Part shown: piece by piece, positions 49,777-64,000 of the stretch
Numbering within the stretch: position 1 is the stretch's first letter
Layout of the letters: every line of letters starts with the position of its first letter
DNA from: Thermoanaerobaculia bacterium
Lineage (GTDB): Bacteria; Acidobacteriota; Thermoanaerobaculia; Gp7-AA8
Reading direction: 5' to 3'
NCBI GenBank assembly: GCA_035999335.1
Contig: DASYGV010000094.1
Span: 21,652 to 85,651, forward strand
DNA length: 64,000 nt
Made by a program: the position numbers and the translations under genes
The notes under the pieces: model-generated
The model's input: only the letters and a program-made list of their open reading frames with translations
Database searches by the model: none
Told to the model about the DNA's origin: nothing

Positions 49777-50094
49777 TCACTGACCGAGCGCGCGGGTTTG
49801 GCCGGGGATGATGATCAAAGGCACGCCGTTCGGAACCGTGATCGCCTGGCTGTCGGCGAGGATCAACGGCTGCCCGTTCGACAGCACGCGCGTCGAGCCG
49901 GTCATGAACTGCGCGGTGACGCACGGCTGCGGCGACGCGGTCGCGAACGGACATCCGGCGATCACGTACGGCGACGTCATGAGCACGGTCGGCTGGCCCA
50001 TCGCCGTCACGCGCGGGTTGGGCACGGTCGGCATGGCGCGTCCCATGTGCACGCATTGCACGGTGTCGACGGCAGTCACGAGCGGTCCGGGCAT
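49777..50094 (-). CDS. PAAR-like / DUF4280-like spike tip protein (Afp10 equivalent)
   Basis: 105 aa in the position between the spike and gp25 genes. The pattern VQCVHMG...GQP...AGCPF...PC...GSTRVLSNGQPL...GQ resembles DUF4280. Confidence 0.6.
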   Translation of the reverse strand: MPGPLVTAVDTVQCVHMGRAMPTVPNPRVTAMGQPTVLMTSPYVIAGCPFATASPQPCVTAQFMTGSTRVLSNGQPLILADSQAITVPNGVPLIIIPGQTRALGQ

Positions 50095-50107
50095 GGGTCT
50101 CCTTTGA

Positions 50108-50632
50108 TCACACGATCGTCAGTGCGCCGTTGTTGATGGTGACGGTGGGGCCGATCATCGTGATCGATCCCCCCTTGCCGTTGTCGATGTAGATGCCGGT
50201 GTCGTTGACGGTGATGGACGCGCCGGTGAGCGACTTGAGGATGATTCCGCCGGTCGGTCCGGGGAGGTCGCTGATGATCACGCGGTTCTGCAGCGTGGTC
50301 TGCATGACGATGCTGGGGCTGACGGGATTGTTCGTGATCGAAGCCTTGGTCGCGTCGGTCGGCAGTTCGGCCTCGATGCCCCAGAAGCAGCCGCTCCAGA
50401 TCGGCTTGTCGGGATCGCCGCCTTCGAACTCGACCCAGACGCCGGATCCGATCTGAGGCACGAACGAGGTACCCATCAGTTTTCCGGCGAGCGGGTAACA
50501 GGGCATGCACCAGCTCGTGGGCAGCAGCGAAGAGACCGCGGGGACGGACGCGAGGATGCGGCCGATGCCCATCGGGTCGAGGTTGTTCAGCACCGTGCCG
50601 CGGTGCTTGCCAAAGAACTTGTGCACGCTCAT
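50108..50632 (-). CDS. gpV/gp5-type baseplate spike protein (OB-fold plus beta-helix needle)
   Basis: FGKHRGTVLNNLDPMGIGRILASVP...GSGVWVEFEGGDPDKPIWSGCFW is the classic Phage_base_V motif. The C-terminal region has repetitive beta-strands. Confidence 0.85.
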   Translation of the reverse strand: MSVHKFFGKHRGTVLNNLDPMGIGRILASVPAVSSLLPTSWCMPCYPLAGKLMGTSFVPQIGSGVWVEFEGGDPDKPIWSGCFWGIEAELPTDATKASITNNPVSPSIVMQTTLQNRVIISDLPGPTGGIILKSLTGASITVNDTGIYIDNGKGGSITMIGPTVTINNGALTIV

Positions 50633-51759
50633 ACCGGGACCCTCGGTGTAATCGACACGAGACCGTTGCGGACGAGCGAGAAGTTCTGTTTGTACTCGCC
50701 CCGCTTGATGGTGTGGGTGACGCTCTTGACGAAGTAGAGACCGTCGAACGCCGGGCCTGCGCCGCGTACGCCGACGAGCTTGCGCGCCTTGAGCACGCGA
50801 CCGTATCGCGCGACGTCGAGCGTGCCGCTCGCGGACGCGGCGTCGGCGCTCTGCGACGCGCGCGCGAGCGCCGCGAGGATCGCCTGCGCGGGATTGCGGC
50901 GCGCGGAGTCGCGGTCGATCTCGATGTTCTTCGGGATCGGCGGCACGAGTCCGAGGGGAGGTGAGAGCGGGTTGACGTTCGGGATCGGGATGGGGATGCC
51001 GACCTTCAGCTCCTTCGGAAAGATCATCACGATCGGCAGCGTCGCGTCCTCGGCGTCGAAGTTGAAGCTCATCGACTCGACGTTCGTCTCCGCGTCCATG
51101 TTCGTGTTCAGCGCCGGCTGCGGCACGCCGATGCGGATCGACGGCCCCCAGTACGCGACGCTCTGCAGCGGCAACGGACCGGGATCGACGTAGAACTCGT
51201 AGCCGGAGAGCTCGGCGAGGTATTTGATGTAGTCGAGGTCCGTTCCTTGCTGCCGCGGGATCTCCTCGGTGGGGATGGGAACGTCGGGGATGATCGCGGG
51301 AAGGACGATCGGCGTGACGCCGAAGATCATGTACTTCGCGAGCATCGCCATCACGCGCACGTTCGCGGGCATGGCCGGGTAGGGAAGACCGTCGAGCGGG
51401 AGATAGCTCATCAGCTTCGAAAGGTCTTCGCCGGTAACGGTGAGCGTCGACTGGCTGCCGCCGTCCCCGCCGCCGACTTGCTGATGCGTGATGACGCCGT
51501 CCATCAGCACGTCCGGCATTCCGTTGATGATCACGAGGATGACGACGCGCATGATCGGCAACTGCGATCCGCCGCCGAGGAGGAAGAGCGTATGCAGCGG
51601 AGATTTCGTGGAGAGCGTGAACGAGAGTTGAAACACGCTCGCGCCCTGCGTGTTGCTGGTGACGCTGACCGAGGTGAGAGCCTCCAGTACCGCGCGCGGC
51701 ACGGGAACCGGCACCCCAGGGCCGATCATGAGCTGGAGGTAGAAGGGAGGATTAGGCAT
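50629..51759 (-). CDS. gpD-like (late control D / VgrG N-terminal-like) baseplate hub protein
   Basis: 376 aa. The C-terminal GLYFVKSVTHTIKRGEYKQNFSLVRNG matches the gpD family ending. It sits directly upstream of, and overlaps, the gpV-like gene. Confidence 0.7.
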   Translation of the reverse strand: MPNPPFYLQLMIGPGVPVPVPRAVLEALTSVSVTSNTQGASVFQLSFTLSTKSPLHTLFLLGGGSQLPIMRVVILVIINGMPDVLMDGVITHQQVGGGDGGSQSTLTVTGEDLSKLMSYLPLDGLPYPAMPANVRVMAMLAKYMIFGVTPIVLPAIIPDVPIPTEEIPRQQGTDLDYIKYLAELSGYEFYVDPGPLPLQSVAYWGPSIRIGVPQPALNTNMDAETNVESMSFNFDAEDATLPIVMIFPKELKVGIPIPIPNVNPLSPPLGLVPPIPKNIEIDRDSARRNPAQAILAALARASQSADAASASGTLDVARYGRVLKARKLVGVRGAGPAFDGLYFVKSVTHTIKRGEYKQNFSLVRNGLVSITPRVPV

Positions 51760-51771
51760 GGGGTGCCCCTT

Positions 51772-51868
51772 CTAGGAGTGCGGCGGCGTCGAGCCACCGC
51801 TCTGGTAGGGTGGGTGGTCGGCGCTCCGGACGTACCAGAGCGGTGGCTCGACGCCACCGCACTCCTAG
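51772..51868. repeat. 97-bp palindromic element CTAGGAGTGCGG...CCGCACTCCTAG (intergenic copy)
   Basis: Lies between the LysM-like gene stop and the gpD-like gene start. It shares the central ctggtagggtgggtgg..cggcgc..cggacgtaccag core with 48301-48396. Confidence 0.85.
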
Positions 51869-51869
51869 A

Positions 51870-52208
51870 CTAAACATTCACTCCCTCCGGTAACGCGATC
51901 GCGAGCCTTCGCCCGATCGTCTCCGTCAATTCGTCCGGTCGCATCGCGCGGTTCGCGTCGGCGATGCGCCAGAAGAGCTCCGGATCGCCGAGGTAGCGAG
52001 CGGCGATGTGGTCGAGGCGCTCGCCCTGCATGACCATGTGCTCGCCGATGATCGACAGGCGCTCCGGCAGCGGCACGAATCGGCGGCGCACGTAAGCGTG
52101 GGTCTCGCCGTCGATCTCGATCTTCGCGATCTCGAGTCCGGCGTAGCGGCTGGTCGGACCGAACGGCGACAGCGGAATGACGAATTGCAGCGCGAGCACG
52201 TCGCTCAT
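51870..52208 (-). CDS. LysM-like / tail protein X-like small protein
   Basis: HMVMQGERLDHIAARYLGDPELFWRIADANRAMRPDELTETIGRRLAIALP fits the LysM/gpX pattern. 112 aa. It overlaps the upstream gene by 4 nt. Confidence 0.65.
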   Translation of the reverse strand: MSDVLALQFVIPLSPFGPTSRYAGLEIAKIEIDGETHAYVRRRFVPLPERLSIIGEHMVMQGERLDHIAARYLGDPELFWRIADANRAMRPDELTETIGRRLAIALPEGVNV

Positions 52209-52855
52209 GGGATCGCTCCTACTCCGATGTCTTTCAGCGCGCCGGACGGCGGGATCTTCGCGAAGGTCTCCTTGACGCGCTGATAGGCGAGATAGATCGA
52301 GCTGCCGCGGTGATCGAAGCCGAGGTCGGTGACGCTCAGTACGCGCATGCCGAGGCTCACTTTTGCGCGGATGGGATTGAGCTTCGTGTCGAACGCCTCC
52401 TCGGTGATCGAGAAGTCGGTGATGCGCACCGGCACGATGCGCGACGCGCTCCAGACGAACAGCACGAGCGGCTGTTCCATCGGCAGGATCTCGAGCACGC
52501 CGCTCGCGGCGAGCGCGTGATTCGAGAGGAGTTGCGTCGTCGTCGGATAGAGGATCATCTCCAACGCGGAGAGCTCGGGGAAGATGCCGGACTGCAGCAC
52601 CGTCGCCCCGGGCTTCGCGACTTCGAGTTGATCGGTCGCGTCGATCTCCGCGTCGATCTTCAGCGTCTCGACCGCGGGTCCCTTGAGGCGCAGCACTTCC
52701 GAGCGATCGCCGGATTCGCCTCCGGTGGCCTGCACCGCCAGCGTGCGCGCGAGCGAGTCGGGTGTGTACTGCATGACGATCACGCGCGCGATGTTCGACG
52801 TGAGCGGATCGAGCAGCACGAGGCCGGCCTTGAGCGTGGAAGGAGTAATGGTCAT
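52205..52855 (-). CDS. CIS tube-fold protein (tube initiator, Afp7/Pvc7 N-domain-like)
   Basis: LKAGLVLLDP...VIVMQYTPDSLARTL and LVLFVWSASRIVPVRITDFSITEEAFDTKLNPIRAKVSLGMRVL fit the contractile-injection tube-protein pattern (xFxFNPxxL ... PVxIxSLxIxExxF). Confidence 0.65.
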   Translation of the reverse strand: MTITPSTLKAGLVLLDPLTSNIARVIVMQYTPDSLARTLAVQATGGESGDRSEVLRLKGPAVETLKIDAEIDATDQLEVAKPGATVLQSGIFPELSALEMILYPTTTQLLSNHALAASGVLEILPMEQPLVLFVWSASRIVPVRITDFSITEEAFDTKLNPIRAKVSLGMRVLSVTDLGFDHRGSSIYLAYQRVKETFAKIPPSGALKDIGVGAIP

Positions 52856-52862
52856 CGGCGCC

Positions 52863-54302
52863 TCACTTGATCTCCTCGCAGAGCGTCACTGGCATGTCGA
52901 ACTTCTTCAGCGTCTCCGGTTGGATCTTCTGGGGCCCGGCGCAGTCGGTCCGCTTCGAGGAGAAGAGCTGGGCCTCCTTGGTGTACTTCGCCCGGGCGGC
53001 CGTGTACTCGCTCCATCGCGCCAGGAAATCCTTGTCGAGGGTGCCGGTCTGTCCGTCGAACTGCGGAACGGGATGCGTGCGCACGTACTCGATCAGATCG
53101 AGTCCGTGTTGACCCTCATGGAAGCGCGTGGAGGTCGTGCCGGCGAACTTGTCCTCGGGTGTGGTGCCGCGGCCGTAGCCGGCCGGATCGCTCGGCCCCC
53201 CGCCCGGACCGTAGACGGTCTTGATGAAGACCGTCGTGCGGGGTGGCGTAACGGTGAAGCTCTGGACGATGTTGGTGTTCGTATCGATCGTGTGCTCGAG
53301 CTGCGAGTCGACGAACTTGATGCCGGTGTACGCGTGATTGCGGTAGTTCTCGTCCTTCGAATACTCATCGGGGTCGACGCGAACGTCCGTGCCGCCGATC
53401 TGGAACGCGGCCGAGCCGCTCGGCTCGACCGTTGCCGTGACCGGAATGGGCGTCGTGATGCCCTGCAGCTGCACGATGCGTTGGATCTGCTTCTGCACTT
53501 TCGGATCGACGGCGCTCCGGACGTAGTCCTGCAGTTCGTCCGGTGAAAGCGATCGCAGACGCTCCATGAGCGCGGCGCTGCTGAAGTCGGCGTCGGTGAG
53601 CGTGAGGGCCTCGACTTCACGGCGGTTCGCGCCGCTGAAGTTGTCCCAAAGCCGATCGCGCCCGATCGCGGCAACGATGTCCATCCGCTCGGGCGACCTT
53701 CGCAACAGCGTGTTGATCGAGCGCTCGTCGAGGAACGTCGTCCAGCCGTGCAGCATGTCCTCGATGAGCCAGACCTTCGTGTCCTTGTCGAAAGGCGTGT
53801 CGAACTCTTTCTCGCGCGAGACGCACGCGCGGGCCATGTTGTCGCTGAAGAGACTCTTCTGCGGTCCCTTTCTCTCCTTCATGCCGTCGACGTATTTCTT
53901 CAGGTCCTCGAAGGGAAAGGCCTCCAGTCCGAAGAGGCGTGGAACGAACAGGACGACGTCGAGGAACGTGCTCCACGCGGAGAGTTGGATCTGCGGCCGC
54001 TGCTCGACGACGTGTTGCAGTTCGTGATCGAGCAGCGCCATGCCGTGCGCCGTGGACGGCGCGTACATCCCGCGCCCGAACGCGATGTCGCTGCCGAACG
54101 TCCACGCGCGCGCGTCGAAGGATTCCGCCGAGCGTGCTGCGTGCTCATCGTCGTGCACGCGCACGCGGCTGAAGTCGTGCTGGAAGCGGGACTCGAATCG
54201 CGCGCGCACCGGTGCATCGAGCGGCTTGCCGGGCGAGCGGAGCACGTCACTGGCGCTCCACGGTGCCGCGGAAGGCCGTTGCCGTTGCGCGAACGCGCTC
54301 AT
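52863..54302 (-). CDS. DUF4157 (HExxH) protein with a C-terminal domain carrying a second HExxH; putative eCIS cargo
   Basis: Start is the ATG at 54302, overlapping the upstream TGA. GKPLDAPVRARFESRFQHDFSRVRVHDDEHAARSAESFDARAWTFGSDIAFGRGMYAPSTAHGMALLDHELQHVVEQ is a canonical DUF4157. The C-terminal domain has FHEGQHGLD. The track ORF start at 55007 is a spurious Arg-rich extension. Confidence 0.8.
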   Translation of the reverse strand: MSAFAQRQRPSAAPWSASDVLRSPGKPLDAPVRARFESRFQHDFSRVRVHDDEHAARSAESFDARAWTFGSDIAFGRGMYAPSTAHGMALLDHELQHVVEQRPQIQLSAWSTFLDVVLFVPRLFGLEAFPFEDLKKYVDGMKERKGPQKSLFSDNMARACVSREKEFDTPFDKDTKVWLIEDMLHGWTTFLDERSINTLLRRSPERMDIVAAIGRDRLWDNFSGANRREVEALTLTDADFSSAALMERLRSLSPDELQDYVRSAVDPKVQKQIQRIVQLQGITTPIPVTATVEPSGSAAFQIGGTDVRVDPDEYSKDENYRNHAYTGIKFVDSQLEHTIDTNTNIVQSFTVTPPRTTVFIKTVYGPGGGPSDPAGYGRGTTPEDKFAGTTSTRFHEGQHGLDLIEYVRTHPVPQFDGQTGTLDKDFLARWSEYTAARAKYTKEAQLFSSKRTDCAGPQKIQPETLKKFDMPVTLCEEIK

Positions 54303-54886
54303 GCGTGGCCTCCTGCGAACCGCACGATCAGAATCGCGAGCGCGCTCAGCGCGCAGATCCACTGCGCCTCGGAGACGCCGAGCCAGCGCCGGCGCTCGTC
54401 GTCGCGGAAGTATTCGAGCGTGAACCGCGCGATTGCGTACGCGATGACGTAGAACGCGAAACCGTAGATCGCCGTTAAGGCGGCGATGACGAACAGCGTC
54501 GCCGATTCGACGTATTGCACGCGCACGCGTCCGACGCGTCCGTGACAACAACCCGCGCTCGCGCAACCGATGCGCCCGATCGCCTGCGCGATCGCGAGCG
54601 CGAGCGCGAGCAGATCGAGCGCGGAGGGAAGCATCACCATCGTCGCTGCGACGGTCGCGAGCTGATAGTGCAGGAACGAGAACGACTCGACGCCGAACAG
54701 CACCTTGGTCATCGCCGCGAGGAACAGCGCGACGCACACGGCGAACGCGGCGACCGCGATCCACAACAGCGGCGTGAGTCCCGCGCGCGTGGCGAAGAGC
54801 GTCGTGACCGCGATGCCCGTCACGCTGCCGCCGAGGACGCAGGTGCGGTAGGAGAGCAAGCTCACGCGGGACATGGCGGCGGCCAC
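54299..54886 (-). CDS. Short Lgt-family (prolipoprotein diacylglyceryl transferase-like) membrane protein
   Basis: Five to six TM helices. AIGRIGCASAGCCHGR and LEYFRDDERR resemble the Lgt GR(I/L)GCxxxGCCxG and EFFR motifs. At 195 aa it is shorter than canonical Lgt. The start is ambiguous (54886 or 54874). Confidence 0.6.
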   Translation of the reverse strand: MAAAMSRVSLLSYRTCVLGGSVTGIAVTTLFATRAGLTPLLWIAVAAFAVCVALFLAAMTKVLFGVESFSFLHYQLATVAATMVMLPSALDLLALALAIAQAIGRIGCASAGCCHGRVGRVRVQYVESATLFVIAALTAIYGFAFYVIAYAIARFTLEYFRDDERRRWLGVSEAQWICALSALAILIVRFAGGHA

Positions 54887-57654
54887 TCCTTCTTCTTCTC
54901 TTCGTCCTCGATTTCGCTGTCTTTTTCTTTTTCTTTGTCTTCCTCTGGAGGCTGTGGCACTTTTTCGCCGCGCAGGACCTTCGTTGCCTCGGTGGAGTTG
55001 TTTTCAAACTCCATTTCGGAGTTCCACCCGTGGTACTTCAACGGACCTAGTTCCTTGCAAAGTGCTCCGAGCTTTCCCTGAAAGTGGACGCGCGCGAGCA
55101 AGTCCTCGCCGACGATGATGGCGAGCTCCTGGACCGCGTCGTAAGCCTGCGCGTAGCTGCCGCCGAGGTAGGGCGGCTTCTCTTTTCCCCAATCGCGGCG
55201 CATCACCACGCGGCGCGTGAAGTACTCGGTCAAGCCCTCCTTCGCGAAGTGCTTGAGGTTGTCCGTGTTGGGATGGGCGAGTGCATGCACCATCTCGTGC
55301 AGCATCGTCTCCGGCGAATCGCGCCGCGTCTGGACCGTGATCCTGTTCGTGTCGCGGTCATGGAAACCCTGCACGGTTTCCTCGAACGCGGTGCAGTACT
55401 CGTATCTTTTCTGCAGGGGCACTGATTCGGGTTGGCGGCTCATGCAGTCTTCGTAGACTTCCTTCATCGGATGCGCGGTCTCGACGATCTCTGTTTCTTT
55501 CGCGGGCGCGGCCCGCTCGTCCGTGAAGTACTTCCCGTACACATCGTGAATCCATTGATATGCGGAGCTCCGGCCGCCTTTTCCGCGAAGCTTCTCCGTA
55601 CTCTTTTCGGTCTTTACGTTCGAAGACAGAGTCGTTTCGGGCAAGTCTTCGCCGAACTGCACGACCTCGAACTTTTCGGCCATCGGCTTGCTGCTGTTCT
55701 CGAATTCGGCGTTGAGCTTCTCGAGGTCCGGCCTTTGCGGCGGCTTTTCTTTTTCGGTCGACAGGAACTCGACCGGATAGGCGAGCGGGTATCGGCGCAT
55801 GTAGAACCGCCAGAGCGCCTCTTTTTGGGACGTGAATTTGTCGAGCAGGTCCGCGTGCGGAATGGCGCCTTTCGGGCCGAGGATCAATTCGAGGTCGGGG
55901 CTCTCGGAACGCTCGAGCAGACCGAGGATCTGCACCTGATCATTGTCCTCGGGACCGTTGTCGAGCATCTGCCGGATGAGGATGGTCTTGCGGCGAACGG
56001 TGAGGTAGTAATCGGACTGGCCTTCGCCCCATGCTTCCGAAACGTCGCGCGCGCGCTTCGCGGCCGTGTCCGTCTGCAGCGTTCCCTTGGCCGTGTCGAC
56101 GCCTTGCAGATATTCCTGCATTTCCTCAGGAGTGGAGCTGCAGCTCTGCAAACGCAGGCTCGATTTGAGCCTCGGCATCGCGTTCGCGCGAACGTCGCGC
56201 GCCCAGTGCCGAAGCCTTGGCCAGAGTCCGAGGACCGCATGCACCGCTGCGTCGTCGGCATCGTGCTCGAGTGCCGTCGTCGCCGCGTCACTCTTGGTCA
56301 GGACCTCCGGGGCGCCTTCCTGCTGTGCGACGTGCGCGAGCTCGTGCGCGAGGAGCGCGTCACCGACGAGCGTGCCCGGCGCGTATTCGCCGTTCGCGAA
56401 TGCGATGTCGTTGCCGATCGTGAACGCGCGCGAGCGGATGCGCGCGGCCTCGGACGCCGCGTCCGCGCCGGTGTGGATGCGCACGCCGGAGAAGTCGCGC
56501 CCGAACGCCTGGCCCATGCGCGAGGCGACGCCGGCGTCGAGCGGGCGTCCGGCGCCCGCGTCGAGTGCTACGTTCGTAGCAGGCGCGGGTGCGCCGTCGC
56601 GCGATTTGCGGAAGAGACTTCCGATCGCGCCCTTGATCATGCCTCCGACGCTGATGCGGATCTTGCCGCCGGCGAGGAGCTCCATCAGGTCCGGCGGCAC
56701 GCCGGCGACGCTGCCGGTCCTGGCCCAGATGCGGATCGATTCCGCGAGGCGCTCGGTGATGCGCGGGATGTACGCGCGCGCGTGCCGCACCTGCGCGTCG
56801 GGCTCGATCCAGCGGCGGATGGAGACCTCGAGTTGCCGCGTGCTCATCGAACGGATGCGCGGGCGCCATTGCTCGAGGAGCGGGCAACCGTCCGTGGATC
56901 GTCCGAGGTTGCCGATCTCCTCGCGCGAGGTCTCGCAGATCGCCGCGTCGAGCAACGCCACGAATTCCGAGCGCCGCATCTGGCCCGCGGCGGGCGAAGC
57001 GGAGTCTTCGACGATCAGGCGATGCGCCTCTTCCTCGCCGGTCGCGGGCTCTTCGTCTTCGCGCTTGCGCCGCACGAGACGCTCGGCGACCGGCGCGATC
57101 GCAGGCGGCGGCGCGAACGCGGGACCCTGCGCGACCACCAGGTCGGCGATGCGATCCGCGGCGCGTTCGTGAGCGTCGTCCGCGGGACCGACGCCGCTCG
57201 GCAGCGCGGTCCCGCTGCGCTGTTGCATGACGTGCGCGAGCTCGTGCGCGAGGAGGCGCCGGCCGCTGGTCGTGTGCGGCGCAAAACGGCCGGCGCCGAA
57301 GACGATGTGTGTGCCGGACGTGTACGCTGCGGCGTTGATCTCTTTCGCCGATTCCGCGGCGTGCGTGTCGGTGTGGACGCGAACGTCCGCGAGGCTGCGG
57401 CCGAAGCGGCTCTCCATCGACGCGCGCGTCTCGGCGTCGAGCGGATGTCCCGCGGATCCGAGGATGTTGCCGACGCTGCGCGGAACCTCGGTGTCCGTTT
57501 CGCCGAGGGCGTGGCGCTGGACTTTCTTTTTCTTCTTCTCGTCCGCGCACGGGCCGCACGATCCGCCGCATCCGCACTTGCGCTGCACGACGATCGGCGC
57601 GCGGCGTTTCACGTCGGAGTCTGGGGTGCGGAGGGCGTGCTGTTTCTCTTGCAT
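54862..57654 (-). CDS. Double-DUF4157 protein with a C-terminal gluzincin-like domain; putative eCIS toxin cargo
   Basis: The N-terminus is QHALRTPDSD...[15 protein letters not shown]. The first DUF4157 is GHPLDAETRASMESRFGRSLADVRVHTD...[12 protein letters not shown]. The second is GRPLDAGVASRMGQAFGRDFSGVRIHTG...[12 protein letters not shown]. The C-terminal domain has MLHEMVHALAH followed by KEGLTEYF, then a Lys/Glu-rich tail. Confidence 0.8.
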   Translation of the reverse strand: MQEKQHALRTPDSDVKRRAPIVVQRKCGCGGSCGPCADEKKKKKVQRHALGETDTEVPRSVGNILGSAGHPLDAETRASMESRFGRSLADVRVHTDTHAAESAKEINAAAYTSGTHIVFGAGRFAPHTTSGRRLLAHELAHVMQQRSGTALPSGVGPADDAHERAADRIADLVVAQGPAFAPPPAIAPVAERLVRRKREDEEPATGEEEAHRLIVEDSASPAAGQMRRSEFVALLDAAICETSREEIGNLGRSTDGCPLLEQWRPRIRSMSTRQLEVSIRRWIEPDAQVRHARAYIPRITERLAESIRIWARTGSVAGVPPDLMELLAGGKIRISVGGMIKGAIGSLFRKSRDGAPAPATNVALDAGAGRPLDAGVASRMGQAFGRDFSGVRIHTGADAASEAARIRSRAFTIGNDIAFANGEYAPGTLVGDALLAHELAHVAQQEGAPEVLTKSDAATTALEHDADDAAVHAVLGLWPRLRHWARDVRANAMPRLKSSLRLQSCSSTPEEMQEYLQGVDTAKGTLQTDTAAKRARDVSEAWGEGQSDYYLTVRRKTILIRQMLDNGPEDNDQVQILGLLERSESPDLELILGPKGAIPHADLLDKFTSQKEALWRFYMRRYPLAYPVEFLSTEKEKPPQRPDLEKLNAEFENSSKPMAEKFEVVQFGEDLPETTLSSNVKTEKSTEKLRGKGGRSSAYQWIHDVYGKYFTDERAAPAKETEIVETAHPMKEVYEDCMSRQPESVPLQKRYEYCTAFEETVQGFHDRDTNRITVQTRRDSPETMLHEMVHALAHPNTDNLKHFAKEGLTEYFTRRVVMRRDWGKEKPPYLGGSYAQAYDAVQELAIIVGEDLLARVHFQGKLGALCKELGPLKYHGWNSEMEFENNSTEATKVLRGEKVPQPPEEDKEKEKDSEIEDEEKKKEWPPPCPA

Positions 57655-57663
57655 CGTTCGCCC

Positions 57664-59295
57664 TCAGGAAGCGGGGATGAGCAGCCGTTTGCCGATCGGC
57701 AGCAACGTGTCGGGAGGAAGTCCGGGATTGGCGCGGCGGAGCGACGACAGCGGGATCTCCCACATCTTCGCGATCTCCCACAGCGTCTCGTCCTTGATGA
57801 CCTCGTGGTAGAAGACGTTGCGGATGATGACGAAGGAGTCCGGCTCCTCGTCGACGCTGTGGTGGCGCTCTCCTTCCCCGCGGAAGATTTGATCGAGGAT
57901 GTTCGCCTCGGCGATGCCGCAGCGGCGTGCGATCGACTTGAGCGTCTCGCCTTTCTTGATGTCGTAGTACGAGCTGAAAGCCGAATCGATCATGCCGGGC
58001 GCATCGATCGGCTCGACGCCAGCCTCGCCTTTGCGGATGCCGAGGCTGTTGCGCTTCGTCGAATGCTCGCGGCGGATGCGATTCTCGACGTCGACGGCCG
58101 ACTCCTTCCCCTTCGGCGTCTGCGTGTGACGGCTCGCGAAGAACGTATCGAACGCGTGCTCGGTCATCACGTGGCCGCAGAGCTCGTGCGCGAAGATCAG
58201 CCACGGCGGATCGCGAAGGATCTGCGAGCGTCCGCTGCCGGAGAGCGGACTCGTGGCCGCGGCCCCTTCGATCTTGTCGTGCTCGCGTCCGGAGACGCCG
58301 ATGTGCGTTTCGGTTCGTGCGCCGCGCGGCCCGAGGGTCATGCCTTGGCCGCGGTCTTCGGTGCCGGACACGTTGATCGTCTCGGTCTTCCCGGCCTCCT
58401 CTCCCGGCGCTGTGAACGAATCGCCGGTGTGAAGGTGGACATCGGGCGCGCCGTCCGCGGTGATGTCGCAGAGGCATTTGCAGGAGACCGGTTTGCCGCT
58501 GCGGCGGAACGAAGTGCGCTTCATCTCGTCGCGGCAGAAGGCCTCGCGGTTCGGCGACGAGAGGACGCCGCTCGCGGAGTCGATCTTCCAGCCGCCGCCG
58601 GGGCACAACGTGTCGATCCAGGTCTGCGCGAGCTGCGCGTTCGTGAGAACAGGCAGCGCGGGATCGCGGCCGGCCGGCTGGTTGGGCGCGTCCTTTCCCG
58701 CGTCTGCGACGGTCATCTTGCGCTGCACGCGGCCGGCGTCTCCGCCCTGCTGCCCGACGTGTGCGAGCTCGTGCGCGAGAAGACGCCGTCCCGCTTCCGT
58801 GTGCGGCGCGTATTCGCCGTGATTGAAGACGATGTGCGAGCCGACGGTGTACGCGCGCGCAGTTACCGCACGGGCCGACTCCGCGGCTTCGGCATCGTCG
58901 TGCACGCGAATGGCGGCGAGTGACCGGGGGGCCGGCGCCTCGCCGGCCGTACCGCCGGCCCCCGGCCTGCGAGGCGCCGGCGCGACGGCCGCCGAGGCGG
59001 CGGCACCCCAGTTGTCCGCTTCCTGCTCGAATGCATCGCCAACCTCGCCGACGGCGAGCTTTTGCGGTCCAACCGACGGGACGCGCGTGAAGTCGTGCGC
59101 GAACCGCGGCTCGAAGAACGCACGCGTGTCGGAGTCGAGCGGACGTCCCGGCGTCGCGAGCACCCGCCGCACGGGCGCTGTCGCTTCGCCGCGGCAGGAG
59201 CGACACGCTCCGCCGCAACCGCACTTGCGTTGCACGGTCAGACCGGTGCTTCGGTCGGAGTCAGAAGTGCGGCGGGCGTGCTGATGCTCGTTCAT
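57664..59295 (-). CDS. DUF4157 / HExxGH-domain / double-LysM protein, tandem paralog A
   Basis: The N-terminus is QHARRTSDSD...[15 protein letters not shown]. Next comes [23 protein letters not shown], then [16 protein letters not shown]...[12 protein letters not shown]. The middle domain has FAHELCGHV and VENRIRREH. Two C-terminal LysM-like repeats are YDIKKGETLKSIARRCGI and HEVIKDETLWEIAKMWEI. Confidence 0.8.
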   Translation of the reverse strand: MNEHQHARRTSDSDRSTGLTVQRKCGCGGACRSCRGEATAPVRRVLATPGRPLDSDTRAFFEPRFAHDFTRVPSVGPQKLAVGEVGDAFEQEADNWGAAASAAVAPAPRRPGAGGTAGEAPAPRSLAAIRVHDDAEAAESARAVTARAYTVGSHIVFNHGEYAPHTEAGRRLLAHELAHVGQQGGDAGRVQRKMTVADAGKDAPNQPAGRDPALPVLTNAQLAQTWIDTLCPGGGWKIDSASGVLSSPNREAFCRDEMKRTSFRRSGKPVSCKCLCDITADGAPDVHLHTGDSFTAPGEEAGKTETINVSGTEDRGQGMTLGPRGARTETHIGVSGREHDKIEGAAATSPLSGSGRSQILRDPPWLIFAHELCGHVMTEHAFDTFFASRHTQTPKGKESAVDVENRIRREHSTKRNSLGIRKGEAGVEPIDAPGMIDSAFSSYYDIKKGETLKSIARRCGIAEANILDQIFRGEGERHHSVDEEPDSFVIIRNVFYHEVIKDETLWEIAKMWEIPLSSLRRANPGLPPDTLLPIGKRLLIPAS

Positions 59296-59304
59296 CGTTC
59301 GTCC

Positions 59305-60885
59305 TCAGGAAGCGGGGATGATCAGCCGCGCGCCGTTGGGCGCCGCGCCTGTCGCGGGAAGTGTCGGGTTCGCACGGCGGAGTGACGCGAGCGGGATCCC
59401 CCACGTTTTGGCGATGTCCTCGACCGTCTCGCCGCTCAGGACGTCGTGGTAGAAGACGCCCCGGATGAAGAGAACTTCGTTTTTCGGAATCGCGGCATCA
59501 GCGTTCTTGAAGCGGTCGCCTTCCCCGCGAAAGATGTCCCACGTGATGCGGAACGTCGCAATGCCGAAGCGCGCGGCCACGGTGCGCAGCGTGTCGCCGG
59601 CCAGCGGCGTGACGTACGAGCCGCGGATGACGATGCTGGCCGACGGGTCGTTCGGGTCTTCGACGCGCGCATCTCCCTGACGGATGCCGAGGTTGTTCGC
59701 CACCGTCGAATGCTCGCGGCGAATCCGGTTCTCGACGTCGACGGCCGACACCGTTCCGCTCGGGGTCTGCACGTGTGATCCCCTGCCGAATGCGCTGTTC
59801 GCGCGAGGCCCGACGACGTGGCCGCAGACCTCGTGCGCGAAGATGATCCACGGCGGGTCCTGCAGCAGTTGTCCTCGGCCGCTCCCACCAGCGGGTGCCG
59901 TCGCGCCCGCGCCGCGCACACCCCACCCCGCGCGCCCGGAGATGCCGACGTGCGTTTCCGTGCGCTTCCCCTCGGGATCGAGCGTCGCGCCCTGACCCTC
60001 CTTCGTCACATCGTGCTTCTCGGTATTCGTCCTGTCCTTGTCCGGCGCCTCGAAGACGTCTCCGGTGTGCAGCCAGACCGACGGCGAGCCGGGTGCGGTG
60101 ATGTCGCAGAGACACTTGCACGACACCGGATGCTTGCTGCCCGCGTAGCCGGGCGTCGCCGGAGCGGTCCCGTCGGTCGTCGGGCCGCCTCCGCAGAACG
60201 CGGCCCGGTTCGCAATCGAGAGAACACCCAAGCCCGGGTCCACGGTCCATCCGTGCGATCCGCAGAGCGAGTCGATCCAGCTCTGTACGAGCTGCGCGTT
60301 CGTGAGCTTCGGTTGACTCTGGGAGAACGTCGCCGGGTCGAAGACGCCTAGCGATCGTTGCAGCGTTCCAACATTCTGTTGACCGACGTGCGCGAGCTCG
60401 TGCGCGAGAAGACGACGTCCCGCTTCCGTGTGCGGCGCGTATTCGCCCTGATTGAAGACGATGTGCGAGCCGACGGTGTACGCGCGTGCGGTCACCGCGC
60501 GCGCCGACTCCGCGGCTTCCGCATCGTCGTGCACGCGAATGGCGGCGAGCGACCGGGGGGCCGGCGCCTCGCCGGCCGTACCGCCGGCCCCCGGCCGGCG
60601 AGGCGCCGGCGCGACGGCCGCCGAGGCGGCGGCACCCCAGCGGTCCGCTTCCTGCTCGAACGCGTTGCCTGCCTCACCGACGGCGAGTTTCTGCGGCGCC
60701 TGCGTCGCGGCGACGCGCGTGAAGTCGTGGCCGAAGCGCGGCTCGAAGAACGCGCGCGACGCGGAATCGAGCGGACGTCCCGGCGTTGCGAGCACACGCC
60801 TCACGGATGGCGGCGCATCGTTGCCGCAGGAATGACACTTGCCGCCGCAGCCGCATTTGCGCTGAAGCGTGGCCGCGGCCATCAT
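59305..60885 (-). CDS. DUF4157 / HExxGH-domain / double-LysM protein, tandem paralog B
   Basis: Same architecture as paralog A: [68 protein letters not shown] and two LysM-like repeats. The ATG at 60885 overlaps the upstream TGA. Confidence 0.8.
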
Positions 60886-61139
60886 TTCGCGCCTCCCACG
60901 CCGCCGTACACCGAGCCCGCGATCGACGTGCCGAGTTGTTGGACGTCGTTCGCCAAGGAGATCCGCGGCGCGCGCACGCTCGGCACGGCGATGCCTCGAG
61001 CGAGCGCTGGCGAGATGCCGCCGCTTGCGATTAGCCTTGCGAGCTCCGCCTCGATCGCCGCCTGCAATCGCGGACGATCGGCGGCGCGCACGTTGACGCC
61101 GTCGAGCACGAGGCGGTCGATGTGCAGGCGGACGCTCAT
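60882..61139 (-). CDS. 85-aa conserved-looking hypothetical coupled between the ATPase and the cargo genes
   Basis: [37 protein letters not shown]. It has ATGA overlaps at both ends (61136-61139 and 60882-60885), which argues that it is translated. Confidence 0.55.
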
Positions 61140-63274
61140 AAGACAGCCATCCAGCGGAAGTCGGCCTCGTTGATCGGCTTCTGCAGCTTGCGCATCTCCG
61201 TCCGCGCGGCCTCGAGCACGATCGGCATGGTCACGTTCGTGCCGCGGTCGGCGGCGAGGAACGCCGCGTTGAGGACGATGTTGTGCACACTCCCGCCGGT
61301 GAGGTTCAGCTTCGCGAGGCGATCGAGATCGAGCTCGTCCGTCGGAGTTTCAGGCGGGAACGCGCGACGCCAGATCGCCCGCCGCTCTTCGGGGCCGGGG
61401 AAGGGAAACTGCACGATGAAGCGCAGGCGGCGCATGAACGCGGGGTCGAGCGCGTCCTTCAGGTTCGTCGCGAGGATCGCCAGACCGCGATACGACTCCA
61501 GCCGTTGCAGGAGGAAGTTGATCTCGATGTTCGCGAAGCGGTCCTGGCTGTGCTGGACCTGCGTGCGCTTGCCGAACAGCGCGTCGGCCTCGTCGAAGAA
61601 GAGGATGCCGTTCGAGTCGTCGGCGGCGGTGAAGAGCTGCTGCAGGTTCTTCTCCGTCTCGCCGACCCACTTGCTCACGACCGACGAGAGATCGATGCGA
61701 TGCAGCGCGAGCCCGAGCTCGTTCGCGATGACCTCGGCCGCCATGGTTTTGCCCGTGCCGCTCTCACCCGAGAACAGAGCGCTGATACCGAAGCCGCGGT
61801 TCATCTTCGCGCGGAAGCCCCACTCGTCGTACACGCGGCTGCGTCCCGCGACGTGCGCGGCGATCTGCTGCAGCAACTCTTTTTCGACCGCGGGGAGGAC
61901 GAGATCGTCCCAACGCGCTTTCGCGTCGATGCGTTGCGCGAGCGAGTCGATGTGCAGGCGCGTCTGCAGTCCGGCGAACGACCAGAGGCGATCGCTGAGC
62001 GGTCCCTCGGCCTCGTCGTCCTGCGCCTGCGCGACGATGCGGCGGATCGCGGCGACGCTGAGATTGAACTGACCGGCGAGACGCGACGCGTCGCCGTCGT
62101 GATCTTCGCCGAGGAGTGTGGTCCAGACTTCGCGCTGCTCGGCGGGCGTCGGCTTGTCGACGTCGAACGTGTGCGAGCCCTGCGGCACCGGCCATGTCTC
62201 CTTCGCGTCGACGAACAACACGCCGCCGCCGCGAGCGAGGAAGCGCTTGAGCGGCGTCGCATGCGCCTCGGCGTTGCGATCGACTTCGCGTGCGTCGAGG
62301 TAGAGCGCGATCGGGAGCAGCAGCGTCTCGCGCTGCCAGAGTCGCGAGAGCGTTTCGAGCTCTCCCGGTTGCACGGGGAGCATGTCGGCGGAGAGGCGAT
62401 AGAGCGTGAGGCCGAGTCGATGCGACGCGGCGCGCGCGACGAGCTGCTTGCTCTCCGCGTCGCGTCCGAGGAGCTGGAGCGGACGGAGGCGGGGCTGATC
62501 GTGTTGCAGCGCGCGGAGGACCAAATCGACGACCGCGGCCTGCGACGCCGGCAGCTCGTCGTCGTGCACCGGCTCGGAAAGCGGCATCACGAACGACGCG
62601 ATGCGGTCGTCGAGATGGCTGAGACCTTTGATGTAGTTGACGACGCGCTCGTCCGCGCGCATTGCACTCGTCGTCAGCGGCTGCGTGCCGGCGGGGCCGA
62701 TGTCGATGAAGCGCCAGTAGCGCAGAGGGCGATCGGGCGAGATCGCGTCCCAGCTCGCGCCTTCGAAGATGGCCATCGCTAGCGCGTACGTCGGGAACGG
62801 ACGGGACTGATCGTCCTGTGCGCGCGCACACAGCGCTGCGATGCGCGTGTCGAGCTCCATCGCCACGCAGAGAAGCAGCACGTCGCGCTCGAAGTTCGTG
62901 AGGCCCGTGCGATGAGCGAGCAGCATCATCGCCGGCGGCGGCTCGCCCGTCTCCGCATCGCGCATTTTCTTTTCGGCCTCGCGGACCTGCTCCGCGGTGA
63001 CGCCGGGAGCGGGTGGAAGCGCGGGACGCGTCGGCCCGGGCTGCGGTGGGGTGGGAGTCGTGCCCGGTGACGTGCGCCGCCACGTCCACCATGACGCGCT
63101 CTCCTCGTTCGTCGTCGTTTCCGTGCGCGGCGTCGCGCGCTGCTCGGCGACGACGAACGGTTGCGTCGACATAGACGGCACGTGTCGTGTGAGCAGGAGC
63201 CGCAGCCACTCGACGGCCGCGGCGAGATATGCGTCATTGCTCTGATGCCACGTCGAGAGATCTCGGGCGTTCAT
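61136..63274 (-). CDS. eCIS-type AAA+ ATPase (Afp15/Pvc15 equivalent)
   Basis: The C-terminal AAA module has Walker A GESGTGKT and Walker [12 protein letters not shown]. It also has SRH-like [20 protein letters not shown]. Start is the ATG at 63274 (MNARDLSTW), overlapping the upstream TGA. The track start at 63676 adds 134 Arg-rich residues. Confidence 0.9.
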
Positions 63275-64000
63275 GGCTGCACCTCGACGCTCTGGTCCGG
63301 ATCGAACTCGAGCTTGTCGCCGGTCTTGACGATGGGAATCGAGTCGACGCCGTCGACACGCAGGCGCACGCGATGGAGACCGGCGACGTCGGGCGCGTCG
63401 AACTTGACCACGGTCGGATCGTCGTTGGTGGCGGGAACGGCGAGCGGCGTCTTCACCGGCTTCGGCGCGCTGCCGTAGATCACGACGATCTGCTGGTCCT
63501 CGCGGATCTGCGGGATCGCCTCGATCGTGACTTCGAAGTCGCCGCCCGGGGCGACGACCTGCGTCGGGCTTACGGCGATGGACGGCGCGAGCGGGAACGA
63601 GACGGAGTTCGTCGCCCAAGCTACGTTGTTCGGCAGCGTGCCGGAGAGCGCGACCGTGTAGATTCCCGCGGGCCATGCCGCGGCGACGCCCGAGCCGCCG
63701 AGCGCTTCCGGGAGCGTGAAAGTCACGCGTCCCGCGTCGACGTGCGTCACCGGGAGATCGACTGCCGCGGTCATGAGCGGATGTCTGACGCGCGCGACGA
63801 GGCCGGACATGTCGAGCCGCTGGCCGTGCAGCTCGACGTCTTCGCCGAGACGTGCGGCGGCGAAGCCGGTGGCGGGCTTGGCGAAGTCGAGCACGGGAAG
63901 CGCGCCGGCGAGCGTGGTGACGCCGGAGTCGTCGGGGCCGCGCTTGAGCACCGGCAGCACGTTGCGCGAGGCGGCCTGGCTTTCGATGAGGAGCACTGTG
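63271..64000 (-). CDS. Hypothetical protein, C-terminal part (5' end beyond the window), beta-sandwich/Ig-like by composition
   Basis: The frame stays open to the window edge, and the track start at 63996 is just the first GTG. Segments such as RVTFTLPEALGG...GIYTVALSG and GGDFEVTIEA...GLHRVRLRVDGVDS look like Ig-like strands. It is translationally coupled to the ATPase. Confidence 0.5.
   Translation of the reverse strand, partial: TVLLIESQAASRNVLPVLKRGPDDSGVTTLAGALPVLDFAKPATGFAAARLGEDVELHGQRLDMSGLVARVRHPLMTAAVDLPVTHVDAGRVTFTLPEALGGSGVAAAWPAGIYTVALSGTLPNNVAWATNSVSFPLAPSIAVSPTQVVAPGGDFEVTIEAIPQIREDQQIVVIYGSAPKPVKTPLAVPATNDDPTVVKFDAPDVAGLHRVRLRVDGVDSIPIVKTGDKLEFDPDQSVEVQP

Follow-up and report, generated by a model that had tools for sequence, protein, structure and literature searches.

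Background

The selection and loading of cargo by contractile injection systems are poorly understood, which limits the re-engineering of these particles as protein-delivery tools. The closest described relatives of the proteins considered here are those with a DUF4157 domain, which is a core marker of extracellular contractile injection systems (eCIS) and forms the constant N-terminal part of their polymorphic toxins (Zhang et al. 2012; Geller et al. 2021). In AlgoCIS, two such proteins, Cgo1 (ALPR1_12695) and Cgo2 (ALPR1_12690), fill the lumen of the tube; their loading needs the region N-terminal to DUF4157 and requires the ATPase Alg15, while the DUF4157 domain itself is dispensable. As a reporter, sfGFP failed to be loaded in that system. 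In Streptomyces, a small DUF4157 protein binds the tube initiator. Here we present an analysis of a 64,000-nucleotide stretch of the genome of a Thermoanaerobaculia bacterium of the Acidobacteriota (contig DASYGV010000094.1, positions 21,652 to 85,651; hereafter the window), in which three adjacent minus-strand genes, P1, P2 and P3, code for DUF4157 proteins sharing a compact four-cysteine motif, the knuckle, close to their N-termini. We show that the knuckle is part of a widespread module of the DUF4157 family, and propose, tentatively, that it might be a small zinc-binding element of the region through which such cargo is loaded or anchored.

Like the AlgoCIS cargo, the proteins of the window consist of an N-terminal region, DUF4157 and a variable C-terminal domain, with similar N-termini in the paralogues and an AAA+ ATPase encoded in the same operon. 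Unlike in AlgoCIS, the cargo genes are flanked by the ATPase gene on one side and the baseplate genes on the other, and, in a comparison by description, the AlgoCIS N-terminal region is characterized as disordered and non-conserved, with no cysteine motif reported. The signals of the payloads of the Photorhabdus virulence cassettes (PVC) and the antifeeding prophage (Afp) are comparable in being polar leaders of 20-70 aa, grouped by system, which load the tube with the aid of a Pvc15-type ATPase. However, those payloads lack DUF4157, no conserved cysteines have been reported in them and their leaders are considered unstructured, whereas P3 of the window has almost no leader besides the knuckle. 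The tape-measure-related DUF4157 effectors of Streptomyces and Sle2 share with the window an N-terminal DUF4157 encoded beside baseplate genes and a tube-initiator gene (in the window a candidate one), and in Streptomyces a DUF4157 protein associates physically with the spike/tube-initiator complex; in contrast, no tape-measure, coiled-coil or transmembrane regions were detected in P1-P3, a point not tested in depth, and the sampled Streptomyces locus (L075) is devoid of the knuckle. Finally, P1-P4 match the Pfam family PF13699 (eCIS_core, formerly DUF4157, the "PVC-metallopeptidase") in their N-terminal HExxHxxQ core and toxin-like C-termini, and P1-P3 also in a glutamate-bearing (Glu) helix, but the Pfam model covers only the core of about 80 aa and not the LQRK-Cys4 module upstream of it.

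An earlier note on this DNA had held that a conserved cysteine knuckle in this position was not known to be described. Our searches agree: it is absent from the searched literature on DUF4157 and eCIS, on the PVC-metallopeptidase and on Pvc15 signal peptides, and from a 2026 AlgoCIS preprint, and two of these sources state that the loading regions of eCIS cargo contain no conserved sequence. Hence, it appears to be a new element within a known cargo class and a known type of loading region: the DUF4157 cargo and its N-terminal loading region have been described before, and what is new is, to judge from the sequences, a conserved and probably metal-binding structured element within that region.

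Results and discussion

A cysteine knuckle shared by three cargo proteins

The translations of P1, P2 and P3 carry the DUF4157/eCIS_core domain and, ahead of it, the four-Cys motif. Their reading frames and N-termini read exactly as quoted in the earlier note, which had drawn attention to the closely related leaders of the three large cargo proteins, and translation of the fourth cargo gene, P4, bears out its observation that this protein has no four-Cys motif. A degenerate DNA pattern for the knuckle has 3 matches in the window, while 100 shuffles that preserve the dinucleotide composition gave 0.00 on average. Outside the motif, cysteine accounts for just 0.6% of the residues in the homologues, so that four cysteines in this arrangement cannot be due to chance. 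Between P1 and P2/P3 the knuckle is 70% identical, the core 43-48% identical and the C-terminal part unrelated. Moreover, the three copies use different synonymous codons (CAG/CAA, AAG/AAA, GGA/GGT/GGC and TGC/TGT) for constant amino acids, which indicates that selection on the protein, rather than a recent gene conversion, keeps them identical.

The segment preceding the motif had been described as polar and disordered in appearance. This holds for P1 and P2, where it has a grand average of hydropathy (GRAVY) of -0.86 and -0.89 respectively, a net charge of +5 and no aromatic residues, and where the AlphaFold2 confidence is low, with a predicted local distance difference test (pLDDT) score of 59-65 for this segment and of 49-65 over the N-terminal residues 1-58. 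In P3, just seven residues precede the knuckle. Other categories of N-terminal sequence were considered and set aside. A Sec or lipoprotein signal is incompatible with leaders that have GRAVY values of -0.3 to -0.9, charges throughout and no hydrophobic stretch. The cysteine-rich core peptide of a ribosomally synthesized and post-translationally modified peptide was likewise rejected, as the motif stands at the start of full-length proteins of 500-900 aa; modifying enzymes beyond an Lgt-like open reading frame (ORF) of the window were not specifically sought.

Anatomy and conservation of the knuckle module

Comparison with the homologues shows the motif of the window to be the short-loop form of a module that can be written as [LV]QRK-CxC-(2-14 aa)-CxxC-basic helix-LQR. 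In its usual order, about 25 polar residues are followed by [LV]QRK, the CxC pair, a Gly/Pro-rich loop of 2-14 residues, and the CxxC pair, which opens a basic helix (KKKR); thereafter come a second LQR[RK], about 15 residues and the DUF4157 mini-gluzincin core. The consensus is (A/P/S)(G)(G)(L)-L-Q-R-K-C-A-C-G-G ... (E)-C-x-x-C-K-K-K-R-L-x-L-Q-R-(R/K). The long-loop form CACGGTPGPTGECEEC is the commonest variant among the closest homologues, and LQRKCACGGTPGPTGECEECRKKRLQRK is a further example of it.

No other segment of these proteins is as well conserved as the knuckle, the median identity of which is 0.80 within a locus and 0.60 when different loci are compared. The corresponding values are 0.63 and 0.57 for the DUF4157 core, 0.36 and 0.28 for the 25 residues ahead of the knuckle, and 0.24 in both comparisons for the C-terminal parts, which are unrelated toxin-like domains. 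The paralogues of a locus have one and the same variant of the knuckle, in as many as six consecutive genes; examples are L026 (5 copies), L034 (6) and L004 (4).

The cysteines of the module come and go together. In the 70 aa ahead of the core, 38 genes have no cysteine, 17 have one, 36 two, 2 three, 54 four and 4 five; if the cysteines were independent, about 30 genes with three would be expected in place of the 2 observed. Likewise, in the degenerate copies of L010, L040 and L056 three or four cysteines were lost jointly. Their occurrence in twos and fours and their joint loss point to one cooperative site, which could be a metal centre or paired disulfides. The earlier suggestion that the four-Cys spacing could bind a metal is thus strengthened by a signature expected of a metal site, namely the counts of zero, two or four, the variable loop and the confidently modelled long-loop form, and from these features we infer that the module probably binds metal. 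In the AlphaFold2 models of the long-loop homologue P0019, residues 21-50 have a pLDDT of 82, 88 and 73, and a helix (residues 39-51) begins just ahead of the CxxC pair, in an arrangement resembling that of a treble-clef finger. As in the Cys4 zinc knuckles of the treble-clef and zinc-ribbon type, there are two pairs of cysteines, a variable loop, a modelled helix that begins just ahead of the second pair and an all-or-none pattern of cysteines; unlike in those, the first pair is CxC rather than the usual CxxC, and the metal site here is a predicted one. No match of the knuckle to a known finger was recovered in Pfam, in a PDB-sequence search with an N-terminal profile or in fold searches.

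Two further aspects of the architecture deserve mention. Relative to background, the tripeptide [LVIM]QR shows a 25-45 fold enrichment around positions -50 and -30 ahead of the core and again at positions 0 to +9 behind it. Among the genes of the genome loci L001-L080, the fuller mark [LVIM]QR[KR] stands at the boundaries of the modules, on either side of the knuckle and directly behind the core; in the window, marks of the LQR type are found at residues 23, 45 and 194 of P1, 21, 42 and 190 of P2, and 7, 28 and 175 of P3. The mark could be a processing site, a docking site or a hotspot of module recombination. In addition, the Glu helix varies in its place relative to the core: among 90 genes it comes after the core in 22, between knuckle and core in 30 and before the knuckle in 13, so that the DUF4157 domain occurs in several permuted orders.

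Distribution of the module

Using residues 1-174 of P1 as query, we obtained a list of the 120 closest homologues; ahead of the core, 54 of them have the full [LV]QRK-CxC-(2-14 aa)-CxxC, and in 8 the second and third cysteines are four residues apart, as in the window. To obtain a sample unbiased by the N-terminus, genomes were selected with a profile of the DUF4157 core only, one per species, and 80 loci were kept; about 36 of these (~45%) have an in-frame four-Cys motif upstream of the core. The bearers belong to about ten phyla, including Acidobacteriota, Chloroflexota, Cyanobacteria, Planctomycetota, Verrucomicrobiota, Proteobacteria, Deinococcota, Actinomycetota, Gemmatimonadota, Nitrospirota and others. 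The core profile detects 73,110 representative proteins in a library of 1.84 billion proteins, and among the best 150 of these 71 have a knuckle ahead of the first core. With this wide spread in homologues, genomes and metagenomes, the motif is not peculiar to the locus of the window.

The association also holds in the reverse direction. When the DNA pattern [LVIM]QRKC[AG]CGG was sought in a metagenome collection, 106 of the 124 instances evaluated among the matches listed were followed by an in-frame DUF4157 core, and 3 more, on the contig L191, lie downstream of such a core, giving a total of 109; the motif occurs on more than 100 metagenome contigs. With 109 of 124 instances in DUF4157 proteins, the knuckle is a near-obligate companion of DUF4157 and not a free-standing portable leader. 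It is usually situated either 40-56 aa or 85-98 aa upstream of the core.

Several variants were encountered. A two-Cys form, KCxxCEEEE, was seen in many of the core-selected genes without the four-Cys motif; it is typical of the Bacteroidota loci and is also present in some cyanobacteria and a Nitrososphaera archaeon. A three-Cys form, RRCGxxxCxxC, was seen in some of the closest homologues, including a protein from Kitasatospora of the Actinomycetota (P0035); loci with variant forms include L031, L037, L039, L045, L074 and others, and variant proteins P0013, P0035 and P0042. The protein on the minus strand of the metagenome contig L191 has, in the region of residues ~280-410, a knuckle variant before its core and three further tandem copies of QRKCACGGTCSKCSG after it. 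One of the only two motif matches in a viral contig collection is a DUF4157 protein of L082 (IMGVR_UViG_3300020131_000108), which is probably an injection-system locus filed as viral.

Linkage of the knuckle to the N-terminus and to injection-system loci

Proteins with more than one core allow the placement of the knuckle to be compared. It precedes the first core in 71 of 150 cases (47%) and later cores in 18 of 195 (9%; p=6e-16), and its start peaks sharply at residues 26-34. This bias to the first core and the fixed start point to a role linked to the N-terminus, such as trafficking, loading or anchoring, and not to a part that every core needs.

To examine genomic context, hidden Markov models (HMMs) made from the window's own eCIS proteins were run over the 80 genome loci with flanks of up to 10 kb. 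About 35 loci repeat the order of the window (49777-63996, minus strand): a 241-aa conserved ORF (up241), the Pvc15-like AAA+ ATPase, an 85-aa ORF (p85), one to six DUF4157 genes and a 216-aa protein (tube216), and then, on the baseplate side, LysM-like, hub, spike, PAAR-like, gp25-like and baseplate genes. A Methanomicrobiaceae archaeon (L040) is among the bearers of this conserved order. In 7 to 12 further loci, the DUF4157 genes follow the baseplate and DUF6519 genes, and in 33 loci no eCIS marker was detected within 10 kb, many such contigs being short. Of the 47 eCIS-linked loci, 34 have one or more four-Cys genes, as against 10 of the 33 others (Fisher p=2.6e-4, a value that counts related loci as independent and so overstates the evidence for the link). 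The motif is hence commoner near eCIS genes, and not equally common with and without an eCIS neighbourhood, which is the outcome that the earlier note had named as speaking against a loading signal. Knuckle-bearing arrays flanked by unrelated genes, within flanks of up to 10 kb, were seen in L025, L026 and L034 (contig OY970060.1).

A strict coupling of the knuckle to p85 was considered and rejected, as p85 is present in the knuckle-less loci L003, L040 and L061 and went undetected in the knuckle-bearing L018, L033, L038, L069 and L072. There is no consistent trend in the position of the knuckle-less paralogues within the arrays. L041 has a single cargo gene, coding for a protein of 422 aa with a globular C-terminal part that contains an HExxH motif.

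The gene neighborhood in the window

The window contains an eCIS locus of the ordinary kind with the cargo between the ATPase and baseplate genes, an assignment based on the encoded ATPase, spike and baseplate proteins. Its minus-strand genes form a chain between 52.8 and 63.3 kb, in which neighbours overlap by 4-25 nt or are 7-9 nt apart, in the order ATPase, p85, P3, P2, P1, a 195-aa membrane ORF, P4, tube216 and then the baseplate/spike module (Table 1). The ATPase, p85, P3, P2 and P1 are translationally coupled, with the ATG of P3 overlapping the stop codon of p85.

Table 1. Coordinates of the knuckles and of the genes of the eCIS neighborhood, numbered from the first letter of the window
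Feature	Coordinates	Strand	Remarks
P1 knuckle	57547..57585	-	residues 24-36; pattern match and translation
P2 knuckle	59194..59232	-	residues 22-34; pattern match and translation
P3 knuckle	60826..60864	-	residues 8-20, seven residues ahead; pattern match and translation
P4	52863..54302	-	479 aa; DUF4157 protein without knuckle; PF13699 97 bits
P1	54862..57654	-	930 aa; PF13699 197 bits in two stretches
P2	57664..59295	-	543 aa; PF13699 86 bits
P3	59305..60885	-	526 aa; PF13699 96 bits
tube216	52205..52855	-	216-aa protein; opens the baseplate/spike module right after the cargo array; synteny in 26 loci
Lgt-family membrane ORF	54299..54886	-	195 aa; PF01790 (LGT) 44.4 bits against a cut-off of 24.9
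p85	60882..61139	-	85-aa ORF between the ATPase and the first cargo gene; 4-nt overlap with each neighbour
Pvc15-like AAA+ ATPase	61136..63250	-	PF22977 72.6 bits, PF00004 100.5 bits; start codon inferred
up241	63271..63996	-	241-aa conserved ORF upstream of the ATPase; HMM finds 26 loci, same position

The PF13699 scores of P1-P4 are all far over the Pfam cut-off of 22. The HExxHxxQ signature begins with HELAH in P1-P3 and HELQH in P4, and the Glu-helix motif reads ERAADRIA in P1, EQEADNWG in P2 and EQEADRWG in P3; none was found in P4. With a constant N-terminal region followed by variable C-terminal domains of the toxin type, P1-P4 are ordinary members of the DUF4157 family. In P1, a polar leader (residues 1-23) and the knuckle are followed by KKKKK-VQRH, the DUF4157 core (66-146) and the Glu helix (HERAADRIA, ~163); a second core (367-446) has no knuckle before it, and a third HExxH (HEMVH) stands at residue 786. 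P2 has a leader (1-21), the knuckle, a split core (46-72 and 125-183), the insert within which holds the Glu helix (EQEADNWG, residue 90), and two C-terminal LysM domains. P3 is a paralogue of P2, with cores 89% and C-terminal parts 59% identical; its leader is short, and the knuckle is followed by a core split into residues 32-59 and 112-171 and by one LysM domain at the C-terminus. The core of P4 spans residues 21-102, and the protein starts about 20 residues ahead of it, near the place of the second LQR mark in the paralogues. In the AlphaFold2 model of P1, the core and the Glu helix (161-175) have a pLDDT above 95, with the helix itself at 95-96, which suggests that the helix is a structured part of the DUF4157 domain. 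The sole fold match of the P1 core and helix in a Foldseek search of the PDB, a weak one, was to the minigluzincin zymogen 4jiu; the match and the modelled helix agree with the published HExxHxxQ-E signature.

In both P2 (58747-59160) and P3 (60373-60792), the first ~27 residues of the core are cut off from the remainder by an insert of about 52 aa, which comprises the Glu-helix motif and an Ala/Pro-rich stretch, the latter identical in the two proteins. The HEMVH of P1 lies in an unannotated domain of its C-terminal part (54862-55300, minus strand), which may be an effector protease, and the coding sequence of the Lys/Glu-rich, highly charged tail of P1 overlaps the start of the Lgt-like ORF.

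As for the other genes, the ATPase combines an N-terminal winged-helix domain with one AAA domain, as does Pvc15. p85 has no match in Pfam, NCBIfam or PDB sequence searches; with an HMM of its homologues, it was detected in 24 loci that represent several phyla, the best ORF lying generally between the ATPase and the first DUF4157 gene, a slot that corresponds to the position of the tail-assembly chaperone in phage tail clusters. By its position alone tube216 is a candidate tube initiator; it matched no family, and a PDB sequence search returned nothing significant. No family match emerged for up241 in domain-library searches. Downstream, the locus codes for a phage-type spike (PF04717), Baseplate_J-like proteins, a TIGR02243 baseplate assembly protein and a DUF6519 protein, and the sheath and tube genes must lie beyond the end of the window. 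No tape-measure candidate emerged in the window, where tape-measure-like, coiled-coil and transmembrane segments were not looked at in depth; the cargo array sits in the slot that the tape-measure gene uses in phage tail clusters.

The Lgt-like ORF separates P1 from P4, and the overlap of its stop with the start codon of P4 couples the two translationally. Comparable ORFs (PF01790, 44-79 bits against 24.9, covering the C-terminal two thirds of the profile) were observed inside the DUF4157 arrays of three unrelated loci, namely L005 (10461-11624), L023 (14117-15538) and L045 (13388-14710). Our literature searches found no link of Lgt to contractile injection systems.

Proposed function of the knuckle and alternative explanations

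We propose, with a probability of roughly 0.45, that the knuckle is a small Cys4 zinc knuckle situated in the N-terminal loading or anchoring region of DUF4157 cargo, where it would aid recognition or retention. Its four cysteines would bind one Zn2+ and fold into a treble-clef-like unit, a single small, structured and positively charged element within an otherwise disordered loading region. As such, it may help the cargo paralogues of one locus to be recognized and held during loading into the lumen of the tube, and the signal could be read by the Pvc15-like AAA+ ATPase, by a small adaptor (p85, for instance), or by the tube initiator or lumen. A more specific formulation, in which the LQRK-Cys4 knuckle is a zinc-dependent, sequence-specific recognition determinant read by the ATPase, p85 or the tube initiator, we regard as rather doubtful.

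Several observations weigh against a role in loading. The characterized loading signals of eCIS, those of PVC, Afp and AlgoCIS, are described as disordered and non-conserved in sequence, and the short-loop knuckle of P1 is modelled with a pLDDT of only 62-65. Single orphan genes among housekeeping genes bear the knuckle in L021 and L043; conversely, it is absent from all the cargo genes of L003, L040 and L061, which have the same ATPase/p85 type of operon, and from about half of the DUF4157 proteins, including P4. Given these knuckle-less cargo proteins, the knuckle is not a universal requirement for loading. The earlier note's idea of a cargo loading signal therefore stands in a restricted form: the motif does belong to an eCIS cargo array just downstream of the ATPase and p85, and a part in loading would be that of an aid and not of a general necessity. 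Two further points would also fit a role in cis with the peptidase: in 13 of 90 proteins the knuckle is placed after the Glu helix and before the core, and it is nearly confined to DUF4157 proteins (109 of 124).

Such a role in cis, the main alternative, would make the knuckle a pro-segment or latency element of the DUF4157 metallopeptidase, akin to a cysteine switch, or a structural zinc module of it, and we consider it unlikely, as we do the associated notion that the flanking LQR[KR] marks are autoprocessing sites which release the leader and later the toxin. Beyond the nearly constant presence of knuckle and core in the same protein at the two preferred spacings, it would account for the enrichment of [LVIM]QR around both, for the LQR-type mark that also follows the HExxH in P2 (VQRK, 190) and P3 (LQRS, 175), and for the nature of the closest, if weak, fold match as a zymogen; indeed, an autoproteolytic releasing peptidase was predicted for this domain by Zhang et al. 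(2012). However, internal cores are seldom preceded by a knuckle, half of the DUF4157 family works without one, and the joint loss of all four cysteines points to a self-contained site and not a single switch cysteine. Moreover, the AlphaFold2 model of P1 gives no indication of a confident packing of the knuckle on the core, though the region has low scores and the models are metal-free, and for DUF4157 itself no proteolytic activity has been reported, the toxicity of Cgo1 being independent of its HExxH motifs.

If instead the knuckle were to act after delivery or outside the producer, by binding nucleic acid or membrane in the target or by forming stabilizing or tethering disulfides, its basic flanks (RK before and KKK[RK] after) would resemble those of nucleic-acid-binding zinc knuckles. 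The paired cysteines are equally compatible with two disulfides, and orphan genes far from eCIS loci have retained the knuckle. Nevertheless, its fixed distance from the N-terminus and its presence in paralogues with unrelated effector domains fit trafficking better, the cargo is made and loaded in a reducing cytoplasm, and no target-related domain co-varies with the knuckle; hence, we think this quite improbable. The presence of the Lgt-like ORF next to P4, and of homologous ORFs within the arrays of L005, L023 and L045, raises yet another possibility, as Lgt enzymes modify cysteine thiols: the N-terminal cysteines might be substrates of this paralogue, with diacylglyceryl lipidation anchoring the cargo to the membrane. 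But such a gene occurs in just 4 of 81 loci, its match to the LGT profile is a partial one, neither a lipobox nor a hydrophobic signal peptide precedes the cysteines, and the cargo genes beside the L045 copy have the two-Cys variant, which together render it very far-fetched. Lastly, the shared leader could be a mere relic of the recent duplication of three genes, with no function of its own, and P2 and P3 are indeed recent paralogues. This is practically untenable: P1 has retained a closely similar knuckle in spite of its divergent core and unrelated C-terminal part, the copies differ at synonymous sites, and the same motif recurs in about ten phyla and on over 100 metagenome contigs, a cross-phylum conservation that refutes it. 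With the shuffled sequences giving 0 matches in 100, these differences and this conservation rule out chance and pure paralogy alike.

Conclusions

The knuckle is a compact, conserved element, predicted to fold, whose distance from the N-terminus is fixed and which is present in roughly half of a family that has about 70,000 representative clusters. If it aids the recognition or retention of cargo, as we propose, the four cysteines and the LQRK mark would be a precise target for mutation, the module a candidate for a minimal tag, and the knuckle a means of assigning orphan DUF4157 genes to their systems. Should it instead control the DUF4157 peptidase, it would furnish the first clue to the role of that domain. 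And if the more specific formulation were true, with the knuckle as a zinc-dependent recognition determinant, it would amount to a defined and portable tag for the loading of the largest eCIS cargo class in many phyla, and would overturn the view of eCIS loading sequences as only disordered and non-conserved.

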